Of a stretch of DNA of 26,295 bases, positions 4,663-23,168 are shown piece after piece. Under the pieces are notes generated by a model. That model saw only the letters and a program-made list of their open reading frames with translations, had not been told where the DNA came from and ran no database searches. The stretch covers positions 1-26,295 of the forward strand of contig JBHLSH010000055.1 in the NCBI GenBank assembly GCA_048881705.1, given 5' to 3'. The first letter of the stretch is position 1. The number at the start of each line of letters is the position of its first letter. The DNA is from Candidatus Heimdallarchaeota archaeon (lineage in GTDB: Archaea > Asgardarchaeota > Heimdallarchaeia > Hodarchaeales > Hodarchaeaceae). Position numbers and translations under genes: made by a program.

Positions 4663-4768
4663 GGGGACGTAGTCTAGCTTGGTTATTGTTGTCTTGGTGC
4701 ACGAGCGGTGACCAAATGATTCTTGGTTCGGGACCAAGAGGTCGCGAGTTCGAATCTCGCCGTCCCCA
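4663..4768 (+). tRNA. tRNA-Pro(CGG) with a 31-nt intron in the D-loop
   Basis: Acceptor GGGGACG/CGTCCCC plus A73; anticodon arm CTTGG TT CGG GA CCAAG (anticodon 4729-4731); T-arm GCGAG TTCGAAT CTCGC. Removing 4686-4716 gives a normal 75-nt cloverleaf. Confidence 0.95.
4686..4716 (+). other. tRNA intron at position 21/22
   Basis: Central helix TGGT(4680-4683)/ACCA(4711-4714) with 3-nt bulges TA|T and AA|T; intron folds through CTTG/CGAG. Confidence 0.8.
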
Positions 4769-16004: not shown

Positions 16005-17792
16005 TTAAATTCTTCGTACTTTTCGGAGCATTTCATGATGATTGACTCGAAAGAACGTGGGGCGCCCGTGTGCACATATGTGTGGGTTTTCAACCTTTGC
16101 CAAATCAGACAAAAGCCTTTTGGCCTGGGGAAATGACAAAGTCTCACCTACACGATGAGCTGAATGGCAGGCAATGAGATTTAACACTTCTTGGAGTTGT
16201 TTTTGAACAATCTGGGGCATTTCAGTCTCAAGGAGCTCTGTTAAAAACTTCTGAAGATCAGCTTTAGCTAGGAGCTTAGGTATTGCATGTACTTCTATCA
16301 TCCGTGACTTTCCCTTGGGTATCCTTAAATCAAACCCCAAAGAAGATAGTTCGGAAATAGCGTTTTTTGCCATGTCAAGTTGGTAAGACTGTATTCGAAA
16401 GTTAAAGGGTTTAAGGAAGGTCTGGGCCACAATTTTTCCCGTTTTATGGCTCTGGATAAGTTTTTCGAGATTTATACGCTCATCTGCGGCATGGAAATCC
16501 AGAATAATCAAATCATGGTGTGTAAGATCCTCAAGTAGAATGAACTCCTTCCCAAGATGACCCCGAAACTTCACATCTGAACCAAAGAGGGATCTTGAGT
16601 CGGAAACGATATTCTTTCCTGAAATCGCAGAAATAAATGCCTCTGTCCTTTCTGGAGCCATCACTAGCTCAGAATGTTTGTATTCTGGGTAGATAGTATC
16701 TTCTTCTCCGGATTTTACGGTTGTGATGTCCAAATTAGATGTTTGAAGTTTTCCAGAAGTCTTTGGCTCGGATGGGGTAAGATTGGGGACAATGTCCGCG
16801 CTCCTAAAGCTGAGGGAAATAGATGAGCTAATCACAGTCTTTAGGTTATTTTCATCGAAAAAAAGTACCTCCCGTTTTTGCGGATGGATATTTACGTCGA
16901 ATCCCCTTTCCATCTCCAAGAACAGATACGCTATTGGAAACTCACTTTTCATCAGATATGCCCCACACCCCTCTTCCAAGGCTGATTGGATTAGTTCCGA
17001 GATAATAGGCCGCCCATTCAAGTAAAAATATTGAAATCTCCGGTTTCGACGATGGAAACCTGGTTTACTCACATATCCATGCAAAGTTATACCATTTCGT
17101 TGAGAAATTCCAATATCTATGAGAGAATTGGCGATTTCTGAGCCGAACGCTGCCTGAATCGCAGGTAGATGTGAATGTTGCCCTTTAATGGTTTGAAACT
17201 CCACTTCATCTTCAGAAACCAAAGTAAACACGATTTTGGGATGGGCCACCGCATATCTGGCACATACATCATAGATGTACCCCTGCTCTATTGAGGCTTT
17301 TTTCAGAAATTTCCTGCGTACAATAAAATTATGAAACAGGTCTCGGACGCGAATAAGGGTACCAGGTGAAGCCATCACGCTTTCTGTGATTTGATAAATT
17401 CCGACGTCCCCATTACACGACAAAGTAGTTGCTAGCTCATCGTTTGGTGTTCGACTTGTAATAGAAAGTCGTGAAACCGAGGCAATAGAATAGAGAGCCT
17501 CTCCACGAAAACCCATTGTAGCAATAAAATCTAAATCGTTTTCTGATTGAATTTTACTAGTTGTATGACGATGAATTGACAAAGGGAGGTCTTTTGGAGT
17601 AATTCCGTGACCGTTGTCTCGTATTTCTATTAGATCCTTCCCGCCGTTCTTTATTGCGATTCTTATCTCATTGGCTCCCGCATCTATGGCGTTTTCCAAC
17701 AGTTCCTTAACTACACTGGCCGGCCTCTCGATAACTTCCCCCGCCGCGATTTTTGAAATGCAAACGGCATCGAGAGTCCTGATTCGAGCCAT
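16005..17792 (-). CDS. mutL: DNA mismatch repair endonuclease MutL
   Basis: IAAGEVIERPASVVKELLENAIDAG, DNGHG, GFRGEAL, DVNIHPQKREV; C-terminal DFHAADERINLE, ACH and CAHGRP. Confidence 0.97.
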   Translation of the reverse strand: MARIRTLDAVCISKIAAGEVIERPASVVKELLENAIDAGANEIRIAIKNGGKDLIEIRDNGHGITPKDLPLSIHRHTTSKIQSENDLDFIATMGFRGEALYSIASVSRLSITSRTPNDELATTLSCNGDVGIYQITESVMASPGTLIRVRDLFHNFIVRRKFLKKASIEQGYIYDVCARYAVAHPKIVFTLVSEDEVEFQTIKGQHSHLPAIQAAFGSEIANSLIDIGISQRNGITLHGYVSKPGFHRRNRRFQYFYLNGRPIISELIQSALEEGCGAYLMKSEFPIAYLFLEMERGFDVNIHPQKREVLFFDENNLKTVISSSISLSFRSADIVPNLTPSEPKTSGKLQTSNLDITTVKSGEEDTIYPEYKHSELVMAPERTEAFISAISGKNIVSDSRSLFGSDVKFRGHLGKEFILLEDLTHHDLIILDFHAADERINLEKLIQSHKTGKIVAQTFLKPFNFRIQSYQLDMAKNAISELSSLGFDLRIPKGKSRMIEVHAIPKLLAKADLQKFLTELLETEMPQIVQKQLQEVLNLIACHSAHRVGETLSFPQAKRLLSDLAKVENPHICAHGRPTFFRVNHHEMLRKVRRI

Positions 17793-17793
17793 A

Positions 17794-20541
17794 CTATTTT
17801 CCTTCGAGCTTCTTTTCTAACTGTCGTAAATCATCAACCAATTCTCCTAATTCTCTTAAAGCATCAATAGGGGTTTTATAGTTGACATCAATGTTAACAT
17901 AATTTTTCAGGAAAGCTAAGATCTCCATACGCAGATTTTTTAACTCCAGCTCCAGCTGCTGCTGACTGACATTCTTGGCCAATGCCTCCGCTAAGGACAT
18001 CTGTCTTGGTCGGGATCCATCACCATCACCCTTGTTAGGCTGCAAGAAAGAATTAGAACCTGAATGTTCTTCCAATTCTAGCAATTTCTTCTGTGCATTA
18101 GTGATAACTGGCTTAGGTACACCAGCCATCTTGGCTACTGAAATTCCAAATGAATGATCTGTTGACCCTTTCTTTATTTTATAAAGCAATATGAGTTTAC
18201 CATTGCGTTCTGTCGCTGTTTGATGATAGTTCTTTATAATAGGATGATTATGCTCTAGTTCAGCTAGCTGATGATAATGCGTGGCAAATAGCGTTTTTGC
18301 ATTCAAGCTTGTGGCGATATATTCCGCGACACTCCATGCCAAAGAGAGTCCATCAAATGTACTTGTTCCACGACCCACCTCATCCAAAATAATTAGTGAT
18401 TGGGGGGTGGCATTACGGAGAATGTTTGCAGTTTCCAACATCTCGAGCATAAATGTTGATTGCCCGAAAGCCAAGCGATCGAAAGCTCCAATACGTGTAA
18501 AGATCCGATCCACAATCCCCATGCGGCATGTTTGTGCAGGTACCCAGGAACCTGCTTGGGCCATCAACACAATTAAAGCCACTTGTCTGATGAATGTTGA
18601 TTTACCACTCATGTTAGGTCCAGTAATGATATGGAGCTCGCAGTTATTTAGCAATACATCATTTGCGACAAAGCCAGTCTCACGTTGTAGCTGCTCCACC
18701 ACGGGGTGACGGCCATCCAGAATATCAATATCAGGTTCATCAATGATTTCCGGACGACAATAGTTATTTTTTCTTGCAGTGAACGCAAAGCAAAGCAAAA
18801 CATCGAGTTCTGCGACTAGATCGGAGAATGCACGAATTTGGGCGGCATACGGGGTGATTTGATCCCGAATTTCACAGAATATCTTGTACTCTAATGTGTT
18901 AATTTTTTCATCTATGTTAAGGATACGTTCCTCAATTTTTTTTAGTTCTGGGGTGATAAACCGTTCCGCATTTACTAGGGTCTGACGACGGGCATATTCT
19001 TCAGGGATTTGGTCTTCTCCTGCTTCCCGAAGTTGGGCTTTGGTTGCCTCAATATAATACCCATGGACCGAATTATACCCCAGCTTGATATTGAAAGAAG
19101 TTCTCTGCTGTTCATTGGCCTCGATCTGCTTTAGAATGGCATCTTGATTGTTTTTTACATTATACAGCTCAAGGAGTTCTGGATCAAAGGAAGGGATGAT
19201 GATTCCACCCTCTTGAAGCGTAGTAGGAGGAGATTCATTGATGGCCCGCCCTATTAAACCAACCATCGCCTGTATTCCCGATACGTCATATTCTGTTATT
19301 CTTGTGCAGATTTGGCAGGGCAAGGCCTGGTTCTGGAGATAAGAGGATAACTCCAGTCCTGTAACTAATGAGTTTTTCAATGCGACGAGATCACGAGCAT
19401 TTGCTGAATTGTATTTTACCTTCGATACTATTCGATGAAGGTCAGCAATCTCAGTCAGGTAATCTCGAATCTGTTCAGATATTCTGAGATCTTGAAAAAA
19501 AACGGTTACTGCATCCAATCGCGCAGTGATCTCCATTCTATCGCGAAGTGGTTGCAACAGCCAACGGCGGATTAAACGGGCACCCATATTGGTAAAGATA
19601 TCGGTGTATATCGACAATAGACTCCCCTCAATGCGTCTGTCAAATGCATTTTCTATAATTTCTAGATTTTTTTGTGTCGATGCGTCAAGAATTAAATATC
19701 GTTGGTCTTGTAACACCTGTAAAGATGTTATGTTACTAGGATACTCTTTCTTTAGCATCGCCAGATGAGATAAGATGGCTCCGGCGGCACGGATAGCTTC
19801 TTTAAGGGTGTCTATCCCAAAGGCCGCCAGTGATTTAACTTCGAAATGATGATGGAGTGTTTGTGTGGCGGTATCGAGATTGAACAATGTCTCGTTGATG
19901 GGGGAAAGAACCGCTTTCGACTCCGAAGTGATGATATCTTCTAGGGCTGTGTGCAGTTTACCTTTTCTATTGATGGAATCAGGAACAATGATTTCTCGAG
20001 GTTTGAACCTCGAGAACTCATCCCGAAAATGCTTGATTAGATCATCCGTAAATTCTGTAACAAAAAACTCGCTGGTTGAGATATCAATAAGGGCCATTCC
20101 AGCTGTGTGTTGTCGTTCATTTATCACAATGCTCATAAGAAAATTATTGCTATATCTGTCTAAAATTGAGGTTTCAAAAACTGTTCCTGGGGTAGCTACC
20201 CGTGTTACCCCCCTTTTCACAATCTTTCCCGAGGGTATTGCCTTGGCATCCTCTAATTGATCCACAATGGCGACCTTGTAACCTTCTTGAACCATTTTTC
20301 CTAGGTACTGATCAATTGCTTTTACGGGTATACCCGCGAGGGGAATTCGCCCCCCATCACCGCCAGCGCTTCGGGATGTCAGCGCAATTTCGAGTACCTT
20401 TGACGTTATCTTTGCATCCTCATTGAATGTCTCATAAAAATCTCCTAATTGAAAGAATACAATTGTGTCAGGGTAATCACGCTTGATTCGCTCATATTGT
20501 TCCATGGCTTTCGTTTTTCGACCGAATTTGCGCTGTTTCAT
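17794..20541 (-). CDS. mutS: DNA mismatch repair protein MutS (MutS1 type)
   Basis: GDFYETF mismatch-binding motif, TGPNMSGKST, STFMLEM, ILDEVGRGTSTFDG, FATHYH, SFGISVAKMAG; ATG at 20541 preferred over 20601. Confidence 0.97.
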   Translation of the reverse strand: MKQRKFGRKTKAMEQYERIKRDYPDTIVFFQLGDFYETFNEDAKITSKVLEIALTSRSAGGDGGRIPLAGIPVKAIDQYLGKMVQEGYKVAIVDQLEDAKAIPSGKIVKRGVTRVATPGTVFETSILDRYSNNFLMSIVINERQHTAGMALIDISTSEFFVTEFTDDLIKHFRDEFSRFKPREIIVPDSINRKGKLHTALEDIITSESKAVLSPINETLFNLDTATQTLHHHFEVKSLAAFGIDTLKEAIRAAGAILSHLAMLKKEYPSNITSLQVLQDQRYLILDASTQKNLEIIENAFDRRIEGSLLSIYTDIFTNMGARLIRRWLLQPLRDRMEITARLDAVTVFFQDLRISEQIRDYLTEIADLHRIVSKVKYNSANARDLVALKNSLVTGLELSSYLQNQALPCQICTRITEYDVSGIQAMVGLIGRAINESPPTTLQEGGIIIPSFDPELLELYNVKNNQDAILKQIEANEQQRTSFNIKLGYNSVHGYYIEATKAQLREAGEDQIPEEYARRQTLVNAERFITPELKKIEERILNIDEKINTLEYKIFCEIRDQITPYAAQIRAFSDLVAELDVLLCFAFTARKNNYCRPEIIDEPDIDILDGRHPVVEQLQRETGFVANDVLLNNCELHIITGPNMSGKSTFIRQVALIVLMAQAGSWVPAQTCRMGIVDRIFTRIGAFDRLAFGQSTFMLEMLETANILRNATPQSLIILDEVGRGTSTFDGLSLAWSVAEYIATSLNAKTLFATHYHQLAELEHNHPIIKNYHQTATERNGKLILLYKIKKGSTDHSFGISVAKMAGVPKPVITNAQKKLLELEEHSGSNSFLQPNKGDGDGSRPRQMSLAEALAKNVSQQQLELELKNLRMEILAFLKNYVNIDVNYKTPIDALRELGELVDDLRQLEKKLEGK

Positions 20542-20693
20542 TCTAACTACTACGACCAACTTCGGACAACAGTTAATTGTAACGTGTATTCTACAGAACA
20601 AATCGGTGAAAGGTTATTAAACCTTCCGTCTGAGACGCGTAAGCGTTATCTATGCAATCGAACTACTTATCATCGCCCATAAGTTTATGTAAA

Positions 20694-20778: not shown

Positions 20779-20834
20779 TCATTCATCAAATTGGCAGCCG
20801 AGGTAGCCCAGCTCGGTACGGCGCCAGACTCGAG

Positions 20835-20849
20835 CGATTCATCCAGGAG
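20835..20849 (+). other. tRNA-Ser intron 1, canonical position 37/38 (15 nt)
   Basis: CGATTCATCCAGGAG; C32 pairs with the intron -3 G; central helix contains a C.A mismatch. Confidence 0.85.
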
Positions 20850-20880
20850 ATCTGGTGTGCTCTGCACTCGTGGGTTCAAA

Positions 20881-20912
20881 TGGTCATGAAGTGTAGCTTC
20901 TGAAACGGAAAA
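20881..20912 (+). other. tRNA-Ser intron 2, T-loop position 59/60 (32 nt)
   Basis: TTCA pairs with GGAA (3 of 4); bulges AA|T and AA|T; inner stem TCA-GAAG/CTTC-TGA. The repeated AAAT makes the boundary ambiguous by sequence alone, so it was set by BHB geometry. Confidence 0.75.
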
Positions 20913-21234
20913 TCCCACCCTCGGCGTTCTATCTATAATATGGTCTCCGATCTAAAACAGTGAGAATCACATAGAACTAAATCAAAGTCCAAATATGTAC
21001 ATTGTAATTTGAGGTAAATCATCGGGTTTGAGCCTTAGCCTGTTCGACCACCCGAAAAAATAAAAGAACATAAGCGAAGCATAAACTTCCGTAGAAAACT
21101 ATGTAGATGGAAATGATTGGATTTCTCAGGCGATTGTGGTTCTGCGAAATCACATTCATGCTGATATACATAAATCTAATCCTATCTTTGTTAGGTTAGT
21201 GATTATACTCTTTACTGATGCTTTGGTGAAGTAA

Positions 21235-22107
21235 GTGGATATTGTACAAGCCATTACGGACATTCAAACCAAATTTGCGGTCGTCGGACGCGAACAAGTC
21301 CTCCGGAAAATGATTCTTGGGGCAACAGCAGGGAAACACATTCTCCTAGAAGGACCTGTGGGCGTGGGTAAGACAACGCTTGCACACGCGGTAGCGGCCC
21401 ATTTTGATCAGGGATTCATCCGTATTGATGGGGATGAAAGATACACTGAAAGTAAGTTGGTTGGCCATTTTGAGCCACCACTGGTTGTGGAGAAAGGATG
21501 GGTTTGGGACAGCTTTGTTCCCGGACCTCTTACTTTGGCCATGAAGAATGGGTCGATCCTATTTATTAACGAAGCCAATCGACTCATTGAAGGAACTCAA
21601 AACGTCCTCCTTCCCTCTATGGACGAGGGCATCCTTATTTTGCCAAAGTTGGGAGTCATTAACGCGATGGATGGGTTCCTAGTCGTGGCCACCCAAAATC
21701 CCGAGTCCTACATTGGAACAACGGTCCTTTCTGAGGCATTGAAGGACCGATTCGTATGGATCAAGCTGGAACATCAAAGTTACGAGGATGAGCTAGAAAT
21801 AGTGCGTCAAAAGGCCGAGCTTGCCGCGGAAGACATTCTAATTGCCGAAACCGCGACCAAAATTATGCGGGCAACTCGAAACCACTCGGATATCCGTCGG
21901 GGATCCTCTATACGTGGTGCAATAGATCTTGCCAAAATTCTAAATCTAATTAAGAGCATGACTCTGGAAACGGTTTCTGAAATGGCTATCATGACTTTGG
22001 CTACCAAAATTGAACTGGAAGACGGTGTGGAAAGGCCCATTGAGGATATAATTTACGAGATCGTTGAAGCAATTCTTTCAGGAGAAGAAGATCGTTTTTT
22101 AGTGTAA
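21235..22107 (+). CDS. MoxR-family AAA+ ATPase
   Basis: Walker A GPVGVGKTT, variant Walker B FINEANR, VATQNP, LSEALKDRF, SIRGAI; GTG start. Confidence 0.93.
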   Translation: MDIVQAITDIQTKFAVVGREQVLRKMILGATAGKHILLEGPVGVGKTTLAHAVAAHFDQGFIRIDGDERYTESKLVGHFEPPLVVEKGWVWDSFVPGPLTLAMKNGSILFINEANRLIEGTQNVLLPSMDEGILILPKLGVINAMDGFLVVATQNPESYIGTTVLSEALKDRFVWIKLEHQSYEDELEIVRQKAELAAEDILIAETATKIMRATRNHSDIRRGSSIRGAIDLAKILNLIKSMTLETVSEMAIMTLATKIELEDGVERPIEDIIYEIVEAILSGEEDRFLV

Positions 22108-22129
22108 AATCCCGGGAATCATACCGGGA
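22095..22129 (+). other. Candidate -1 programmed ribosomal frameshift signal
   Basis: T TTT TTA (22095-22101) in the MoxR frame, 8-nt spacer, stem TCCCGG(22110-22115)/CCGGGA(22124-22129); the -1 frame is open into the VWA ORF. Confidence 0.7.
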
Positions 22130-22166
22130 ATTAAAGAAGAACATTCGTCTGTTTGGTCGACTCAAC

Positions 22167-23168
22167 TTGGAGGACCTGGCCGAAGCGGCAATCATGGCTG
22201 GGGACACCCTACCTAAGCTCGATAAGCTCGATTTGGCCAGTATTGAACGGTTAACCGAATCGGCCATTGAACATGAAAATCTACCCGCTTTAATGTCGTT
22301 GGCTAAAATCAATAAGTATGCGGTATCAAACACCTTAAATCCTGAACGGTTGGTTTCCCTTGGGCGGGTTGCTGGATCTGGGGGAATCTATACTCCGCGT
22401 CTATTTTTCGTAATGCGGGGTGTTATGGACACTAAACGTCGAAAAATACTGAAACGCCTCACGCGAATGTCTATCCTGAAGATGTCGCTACGAATTGCAT
22501 CCGAGGGACTGCGTGGTGATCTGCCTGTCCGTGGCGAATACCAACCTGATGCGGAGTTTGACTTGGAGGAGACAATGACGCAAGTCCTAGAGAAATATCC
22601 CACGGGTATTCCCGCATTACGACGTGGCGATATCGTTGGCATCCAGAGGAAGGAACGAAAGAAAAATGGAGTTTTAATTCTGGATGCAAGCGGCTCAATG
22701 ATGGGGGAACGAAACATCAATGCAGCATTGTCTGCGGCGGTGATGGCCTATTCTATGCGTCATGATAAATTTGGTGTCATTGCTTTCAATACTAGGGCAT
22801 TCCTGATAAAGGGTATCAAAGACGATCTTCCAATTCAGGATATAATGGATAAAATTCTTGATCTGGAAGCGGTAGGTTACACGAATATTGAGGATGGGTT
22901 AAAAATGGGAGCTTTACAGATCAAGAATATGAAAACCCGATTTAAATGGGCCATCTTGATGACCGATGGTGCTTATAATAAGGGAGAAGATCCTCGATAT
23001 CTCTGTAAACATTTTGAAAAACTGCATGTGCTGAATTTACCAGGCAAGAAATGGGGTGAAAGAGTTTGTAAGGATCTTGCACGTCTGGGAGGCGGACGAT
23101 ATGTTAGTGTACGCAGTTATCAGGAAGTTCCGCGCGCCCTAATGAAAATTCTCAGGTCTCCATGGTAA
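22167..23168 (+). CDS. VWA (von Willebrand factor A) domain protein, MoxR partner; frame is open upstream to 22068
   Basis: MIDAS elements LDASGSM, GYTNI and LMTDG; only a TTG start without an obvious Shine-Dalgarno. Confidence 0.9.
   Translation: MEDLAEAAIMAGDTLPKLDKLDLASIERLTESAIEHENLPALMSLAKINKYAVSNTLNPERLVSLGRVAGSGGIYTPRLFFVMRGVMDTKRRKILKRLTRMSILKMSLRIASEGLRGDLPVRGEYQPDAEFDLEETMTQVLEKYPTGIPALRRGDIVGIQRKERKKNGVLILDASGSMMGERNINAALSAAVMAYSMRHDKFGVIAFNTRAFLIKGIKDDLPIQDIMDKILDLEAVGYTNIEDGLKMGALQIKNMKTRFKWAILMTDGAYNKGEDPRYLCKHFEKLHVLNLPGKKWGERVCKDLARLGGGRYVSVRSYQEVPRALMKILRSPW

Follow-up and report, generated by a model that had tools for sequence, protein, structure and literature searches.

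In our analysis of a 26,295-nucleotide (nt) stretch of DNA from a Candidatus Heimdallarchaeota archaeon of the Hodarchaeales type (Asgard; assembly GCA_048881705.1, contig JBHLSH010000055.1; the whole stretch is hereafter called the window), an AAA+ ATPase and a protein with a von Willebrand factor A-type (VWA) domain were found to be encoded in overlapping frames and, judging from comparative evidence, -1 ribosomal frameshifting at a run of U residues probably joins the ATPase to the VWA frame. The open reading frame (ORF) of the ATPase ends in CGT TTT TTA GTG TAA, and the hairpin that follows has a stem of 6 base pairs (bp), one U-A and five G-C, with a loop of 8 nt. The initial annotation of this stretch, in which the frameshift had been proposed, was exact in its anatomy (ORF end, heptamer at 22095-22101, register, 8-nt spacer, and stem), and its statement that the VWA frame is -1 relative to the ATPase ORF and free of stops back to 22068 is borne out by a 40-nt overlap of the two ORFs. 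The elements of the locus, in window coordinates, are the following.

21235..22107 (+): AAA+ ATPase ORF in the 0 frame, 290 amino acids (aa), the short product; GTG start with GGTGA before it; AAA_5/AAA_3 matches
22080..22084 (+): AGGAG, 10 nt 5' of the heptamer; candidate Shine-Dalgarno-like stimulator or plain Ser-Gly-Glu codons
22095..22101 (+): T TTT TTA, the slippery heptamer; its register is X XXY YYZ and it lies within the codons CGT TTT TTA
22102..22109 (+): 8-nt spacer between heptamer and stem, GTGTAAAA, from sequence reading and the genus alignment
22105..22107 (+): 0-frame stop TAA, one codon 3' of the heptamer; in nearly all relatives the stop stands directly after the heptamer
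22110..22129 (+): stem-loop TCCCGG / 8-nt loop / CCGGGA, with arms at 22110-22115 and 22124-22129
22101..22166 (+): linker codons of the -1 frame, SVKSRESYRELKKNIRLFGRLN, reachable solely by a frame shift
22167..23168 (+): remainder of the -1-frame ORF, a helical domain and a VWA domain with a metal ion-dependent adhesion site (MIDAS) motif; VWA_2 match and AlphaFold2 (AF2) model

The linker comprises 22 codons from 22101 and ends before the TTG at 22167, which is the sole nearby canonical start for the VWA ORF. The position of this TTG is not conserved, and no Shine-Dalgarno-like motif precedes it in the window sequence. The AGGAG element appears as GGNGA across the genus and is not conserved outside it; it is possibly an upstream stimulator as in dnaX, or it may be merely the Ser-Gly-Glu codons.

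The genus-level comparison covered 19 distinct sequences, 17 of which entered the stem alignment. CGT TTT TTA was invariant in all 19. In these genes, CGT accounts for 23% of Arg codons, TTT for 73% of Phe codons, and TTA for 34% of Leu codons, and the flanking synonymous sites are saturated, with the preceding Ala, Ile, Leu, Gly, and Asp codons using all of their synonyms. By this comparison, the codon choice of the heptamer is fixed beyond the need for the encoded amino acids. The extra codon before the stop in the window represents a one-codon displacement of the stop by substitution. The spacer is 8 nt long in all 17 aligned sequences and in a further locus of the same order (L049). The stem, which in most members of the genus is 7 bp with a loop of 6 nt, is paired in 98% of the alignment cells; five pairs are invariant and one has changed from AU to GC via GU, while the loop is variable at every position. 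The arms of the stem fix two rare codons, TCC (11% of Ser) and CGG (9% of Arg). Further genus-level stems were sought in metagenomes with the pattern CGTTTTTTA, a gap, and AARAAYAT, but the pattern was too loose; at least 120 loci matched, and no homologue was encoded among the matches listed.

The linker evolves as a coding sequence. Across the genus, the 22 codons before the TTG have accumulated 10, 13, and 34 changes at codon positions 1, 2, and 3 of the -1 frame, and this third-position excess is indicative that the -1 frame upstream of 22167 is conserved as protein, in agreement with its protein-like reading in the initial annotation. The codon at the position of the TTG is CTG, CTA, TTA, or ATA in many species of the genus, and in five loci (L005-L008 and L010) neither ATG, GTG, nor TTG occurs in the VWA frame between its upstream stop and the 15th codon after the conserved LFGRL motif.

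We then compared 77 distinct junctions from the class Heimdallarchaeia (the count of U-runs includes L094 after manual correction). The VWA frame was -1 in 68 of them and +1 in nine; none was in frame and none had the two ORFs spaced apart. A heptamer with six to eight U residues stands in register in 58 of the 77, nearly always immediately 5' of the stop, and about 10 loci retain only U UUU. The -1-frame peptide can be aligned from FF onward across the class, the differences in linker length are all multiples of three, and an excess of third-position changes from the U-run onward was observed in every clade. Hairpins also recur at this place. The stem of L049 (9+4 bp, z = -5.4) is unrelated to that of the genus and likewise begins after an 8-nt spacer, different hairpins are found 3-8 nt downstream in other clades (e.g., AGGGAGCUG/CAGCUCUCU, with compensatory changes), and the mean z of the junction fold over 56 loci is -1.8.

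The nine loci with a +1 relation (L030, L085, L087, L089, L090, L093, L097, L099, and L109) form one clade with a Shimodaira-Hasegawa-like approximate likelihood ratio test (SH-aLRT) support of 100. They read AAG TTT TTT CGG and reach the stop after two or three more codons; CGG, a rare codon (3.5 per 1000 codons), sits at the A-site position. On the 3' side of the run, the VWA frame has conserved Gly and Pro residues, and the 0-frame residues and the position of the stop vary. This clade may carry a +1 (UUU to UUC) or -2 version of the same recoding site. Alternatively, it may represent a true gene fission that uses an ATG located shortly (8-10 nt) after the stop, which is present in eight of the nine loci.

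At the level of the phylum, orthologues of the ATPase were found in 155 of 251 sampled Asgard genomes, nearly all as open frames of 284-320 aa, and 20 loci from other Asgard families were sampled for their junctions. The VWA frame lies at -1 with an overlap in 17 of the 20. The ATPases encoded at these loci mostly end in [DN]-F-stop (U UUU U and then AG, GA, or AA), and in many a hairpin lies just downstream; seven of the 20 have no canonical start for at least 48 codons. A slippery P-site codon beside a stop, as read in these sequences, is compatible with the slippage of a single tRNA while the stop is slowly decoded. As a possible coupled start, we considered TTG where it overlaps the stop (TTGA); this is conceivable for loci reading AAT TTT TGA and is excluded if the codon is TTA, ATA, or CTA, which is the case in the window and the class. 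All comparative checks suggested in the initial annotation turned out in its favour: the heptamer noted in the window is invariant in the genus and its U-run is kept across class and phylum, and the predicted stem keeps its 8-nt spacing and shows one compensatory pair, with other hairpins at the same place in other clades.

The same protein exists elsewhere as a single uninterrupted chain. A search limited to longer proteins returned 305 proteins with AAA and VWA parts in one frame and a length of 590-720 aa; their identity to the ATPase part is 47-65%, and they come from Njordarchaeales, Bathyarchaeia, Methanomethylicia, Nitrososphaerales, Thermoplasmatota, and some Promethearchaeota. These fusions are colinear with the predicted trans-frame product of the window (...SGE, about 20 linker residues, IRLFG[KR]...), and the product size calculated in the initial annotation (289+355 = 644 aa) agrees with natural in-frame fusions of 600-720 aa. 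In a quick maximum-likelihood tree of the AAA part, the fusions P0001-P0004 nest inside the order-level clade of the window (SH-aLRT 98), and at least three changes between the fused and the split state are needed. The linker DNA of P0001 (= L113) and P0003 (= L111), the only two fusions read as DNA, has neither a U-run nor a G-C stem. Since both elements are absent from these fusions, the U-run and the stem are not required by the protein.

Pfam matches to the first ORF are AAA_5 (70.3 bits, cut-off 22) and AAA_3 (52.5 bits, cut-off 27), and to the second ORF VWA_2 (37.2 bits, cut-off 27) and VWA_CoxE (28 bits); both frames are under purifying selection, with 42-100% identity. An AAA_5/AAA_3 module above the cut-offs, followed by a MIDAS-bearing VWA domain, is the arrangement of a MoxR-like ATPase and its VWA partner. 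The label MoxR given initially is right for the AAA_5/MoxR-like module but does not extend to any established MoxR subfamily, and the best single-domain matches of the ATPase in the Protein Data Bank (PDB) are MoxR 2r44 (52 bits), NorQ (47), and CbbQ (42). Its Walker A motif is GPVGVGKT, and the MIDAS motif of the VWA domain, D196-x-S198-G199-S200 (DxSxS), is invariant in alignment A1. The AF2 model of the -1-frame product has a predicted local distance difference test score (pLDDT) of 80.6; residues 1-20 are disordered, the helical domain spans 24-134, and the VWA domain spans 190-352. The linker segment, at a pLDDT of 33-40, is predicted to be disordered. Foldseek searches with this model returned generic VWA folds only (BatB, NorD, TFIIH p44, and the MDN1 MIDAS) and nothing informative for the helical domain.

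Several more specific identities were rejected. Chelatase D models scored far below their cut-offs (TIGR02442, 30.5 and 26.0 bits vs. 779; TIGR02031, 28.5 vs. 500), and the ChlI/BchI-type module PF01078 reached only 22.4 bits over 39 residues, covering only the P-loop. TIGR02640 (GvpN) scored 96.7 bits against a cut-off of 266.8, by which the name GvpN used by some database sources is loose. A special kinship with midasin was also discarded, as its top rank in the PDB search (E = 9e-37) results from adding up six weak domain hits (25-37 bits each), and MoxR 2r44, NorQ, and CbbQ have higher scores per domain. As a separate observation on the family, the Walker B motif is hhhhNE and not hhhhDE in 127 of 127 aligned split and fused members (residues around ILFINEANR, 21235-22104, + strand), and the Walker A, sensor, and arginine motifs are retained.

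The events proposed for this locus may be envisaged as follows. A single mRNA would hold both frames, and most ribosomes would read CGU UUU UUA GUG and stop at UAA, giving the 290-aa ATPase. A fraction of the ribosomes would pause while UUU occupies the P site and UUA the A site, hindered by the hairpin 8 nt downstream, slip back by one base onto U UUU UU, and read the -1 frame from 22101 to 23165. The shifted product would be about 644 aa long, consisting of the AAA+ module, some 20 disordered linker residues, the helical domain, and the VWA/MIDAS domain. The formation of rings by AAA+ modules and the docking of VWA partners are known from textbook pairs. Since both products would share the ATPase module, mixed rings could form, made mostly of free subunits with one or a few carrying a tethered VWA arm, comparable to the ChlI-like and ChlD-like subunits from frameshifted chlD and the two clamp-loader subunits from dnaX. 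What the sequences show is the anatomy, its conservation, the coding pattern, the missing start codons of relatives, and the natural fusions; we infer the ribosomal nature of the shift, its efficiency, the co-assembly of the products, and their cellular function, together with a set product ratio and the tethering into the ring. The -1 reading predicts a junction peptide ...EEDRF-[L or F]-SVK. The frameshift-derived peptide LNLEDLAEAAIMAGDTLPK would have Leu where a TTG start would give Met, and MEDLAEAAIMAGDTLPK, coded from 22167 on with TTG read as Met, would be the N-terminus under independent initiation.

More tentatively, and with considerable doubt, the locus may be one instance of an ancient, phylum-wide device for setting subunit ratios. 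Such a device would use a -1 shift in most lineages (at U UUU UUN and a stop, or at U UUU U as a 'shifty stop') and a +1 or -2 shift in the AAG UUU UUU CGG lineage, and would produce AAA+ rings bearing one or a few MIDAS arms on a covalent tether, as a modular equivalent of eukaryotic midasin with its six ATPases to one MIDAS. In this reading, the product ratio might be tuned via decoding by tRNA-Phe, the wyosine modification state of which is known to affect shifting on U-runs (PMC5009743).

Several observations weigh against frameshifting at this site. TTTTTTA occurs 15 times in the whole window, where 13.0 ± 3.5 occurrences are expected, and the local fold at the window junction (z = -1.6) is equalled in 16 of 200 shuffles; as the heptamer and stem within the window are not beyond chance, the significance of the case comes from conservation alone. 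Covariation in the genus stem amounts to one pair, and 22 of 500 shuffles match the observed score. With about 10 loci that have only U UUU and nine that need a +1 or -2 shift, no single mechanism serves all loci. A run of six U residues is also a potential archaeal signal for transcription pausing or termination. FF is found at the junction point in some more distant in-frame fusions as well (P0005 and P0022), and part of the conservation of the U-run may therefore be at the amino-acid level; by the same sequences, FF in distant fusions suggests how a shift site could arise. Lastly, the TTG at 22167 is in frame with the VWA ORF, and 48 of the 77 loci, including most Heimdallarchaeia outside the genus, have an in-frame ATG at the homologous column, 22-27 codons past the site and often behind GAGG. 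As a correction to the initial annotation, many Heimdallarchaeia outside the genus, with this conserved ATG, may thus also make a free VWA protein beside the fusion.

One alternative, which we consider unlikely, takes these starts at face value: two separate proteins would be made with no fusion, the VWA protein starting at the TTG or the conserved ATG and perhaps coupled to termination, the U-run would be no more than a Phe-Phe/Leu C-terminus, and the hairpin would serve coupling or mRNA stability. Order in the AF2 model begins at about residue 22, so the fold would be complete in a protein starting at that point; FF in the linker of some in-frame fusions speaks for this alternative as well, and MoxR-type ATPases and VWA partners are usually separate, e.g., NorQ and NorD (PMC13036017). 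It does not, however, account for the CTN, TTA, or ATA codons at the TTG position in many members of the genus, or for the five members without a canonical start in the region. Nor would separate initiation explain why the 22 codons upstream of the TTG evolve as -1-frame coding sequence, why every linker indel is a multiple of three and none of the 77 loci has its two ORFs in frame or spaced apart, and why seven of the 20 loci from other Asgard families have no start for at least 48 codons. The fixation of CGT TTT TTA beyond amino-acid need and the lack of a Shine-Dalgarno-like motif before 22167 also argue against separate initiation.

Recoding could instead occur at the level of RNA, and we give this a similarly low probability. 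Here, the polymerase would stutter on T6 and add one U (or remove one or two in the +1 lineages), by which a subset of the mRNA would be in frame. All lineages have a U-run (4 to 8 bases) in common, a single monophyletic lineage requires a shift in the other direction at this run, and transcriptional slippage yields both insertions and deletions (PMC5009743). However, T4-T6 is short against known cases of about 7-11 bases (PMC5009743, PMC3711429), and the X XXY YYZ register, the adjacent stop, and the hairpin at a fixed 8 nt are features of ribosomal shifting for which stuttering has no need; the variants with U UUU and a stop are consistent with P-site slippage when the stop codon is slow. 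An artefact or decay, i.e., a homopolymer error hiding a true T7 and a plain fusion gene or a recently broken pseudogene, has in its favour that homopolymers are error-prone and that the in-frame fusion is the usual form of the family elsewhere, but it can be taken as refuted for practical purposes, as the same frame relation and U-run are found in about 100 independent assemblies from many studies (including the closed chromosomes CP070760, CP070695, CP084166, and CP084167), the same relation holds in 17 of 20 loci from other Asgard families, and both frames are under purifying selection.

The closest known parallel to the proposed -1 frameshift is fs-chlD of the Mg/Co chelatases, in which a -1 shift near the end of the AAA+ module gives an AAA+-only and an AAA+-linker-VWA subunit (PMC3711429, PMC9227772, PMC5009743). 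As in the present case, annotations usually show two neighbouring genes at the one locus, other species have in-frame fusions, and the trans-frame architecture is AAA+, linker, and VWA. In archaea, fs-chlD has been predicted in Methanococcus and Methanocaldococcus (Antonov et al., 2013, PMC3711429; Kuznetsov et al., 2022, PMC9227772; PMC5009743). The fs-chlD site is, however, an A-run (A_AAA_AAR up to 11 A), whereas all loci examined here have a U-run, and its module is of the ChlI/BchI type, whereas the present one is AAA_5/MoxR-like and of Asgard lineage. Unlike fs-chlD, the window locus has no cobN or chlH neighbour.

The tau/gamma gene dnaX of E. coli (PMC5009743) is likewise an AAA+ gene with a heptamer, a 3' stem-loop, a Shine-Dalgarno-like element 10 nt upstream, and a stop beside the site, and it gives two subunits that share the ATPase module, as is proposed here; those of dnaX co-assemble. 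In E. coli dnaX, shifting gives the short product and takes place at A AAA AAG, and the protein belongs to the bacterial clamp loader, whereas the shifted product of the present locus would be the long one. Some dnaX genes, however, need the shift for the long subunit (Antonov et al., 2013, PMC3711429), as is proposed for the window. The same heptamer, U UUU UUA, with a simple hairpin and a long fusion as the minor product, is found in HIV-1 gag-pol (PMC5009743), which differs in being viral, in using eukaryotic ribosomes, and in having its 0-frame stop far downstream and not adjacent as here. Among cellular archaeal genes, fucA1 of Saccharolobus solfataricus (PMC1616953, PMC8211752) also has two ORFs at -1, a heptamer, and a putative stem-loop. 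Its site is A AAA AAT, it is split in particular strains only with full-length relatives, and only its full-length product appears useful; the present locus, in contrast, is conserved phylum-wide and has two plausible products.

With respect to the proteins, NorQ-NorD, CbbQ-CbbO, and RavA-ViaA (PMC13036017) resemble the present pair in that a hexameric ATPase of the AAA_5/AAA_3 type is encoded beside a VWA/MIDAS protein. They are separate polypeptides that dock non-covalently, whereas here the two parts are putatively joined covalently by recoding, and are joined in frame in other archaea. Midasin/Rea1 also combines AAA_5 modules with a MIDAS domain on a long flexible linker, at six ATPase modules per MIDAS. 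These six modules are, however, in tandem in one chain of about 4,700-4,900 residues, whereas the present protein has a single module and shows no specific kinship. In its geometry, the window site also recalls gag-pol, as the HIV-1 hairpin is located about 8 nt downstream of the heptamer.

The neighbours of the locus (MutS/MutL, tRNAs, and a GDPD gene) give no functional clue, and a scan of the window for bacterial promoters and terminators, which models no archaeal signals, returned nothing relevant. Some features of the window and its relatives may be recorded apart from the frameshift. MutL (595 aa) and MutS (935 aa, domains I-V), both full-length and bacterial-type, are adjacent at 16005-20601 (-). 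Directly after tRNA-Leu(CAG), a candidate tRNA-Ser(CGA) was recognized by eye at 20789-20929 (+); its acceptor stem is GCCGAGG/CCTCGGC, its variable arm is long, and it has two introns, one of about 15 nt after the anticodon and one of about 30 nt in the T-loop; it was missed by ARAGORN and by Rfam at the gathering threshold. Another tRNA, at 4707-4768 (+), scores 30.8 bits in Rfam against a threshold of 29 and is absent from the ARAGORN output. In L034 (3572-4102), and also in L035 and G003:C24:875-997, a decayed duplicate of the last ~40 codons of the gene, with a stop inside, lies about 480 nt past the VWA stop and is a remnant of partial duplication. The genome of the window also has two distant VWA paralogues, 25-27% identical, at G000:C61:18184-18879 (-) and G000:C78:9754-10668 (-), one of which is part of an open frame of 599 aa and could represent a relative with AAA and VWA fused in frame.

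Cellular -1 recoding is almost undocumented in archaeal chromosomes. A 2021 review lists one reported archaeal -1 programmed frameshift, fucA1, with the chelatase case merely suggested (PMC8211752), and our literature search found no paper on frameshifting in MoxR-like/VWA genes or in Asgard cellular genes, which is in line with the initial annotation, whose author knew of no such description for MoxR/VWA pairs. If true, the present locus would be a case of deeply conserved cellular recoding in the closest archaeal relatives of eukaryotes, with the heptamer-plus-hairpin design of retroviruses, and would offer a natural system for U-run slippage on archaeal, eukaryote-like ribosomes. In hundreds of Asgard genomes, two genes are annotated at the locus, the start of the second being arbitrary, and, if the proposed shift is true, the biology of the family, a ring with a tethered adaptor, would be misread from this two-gene annotation.

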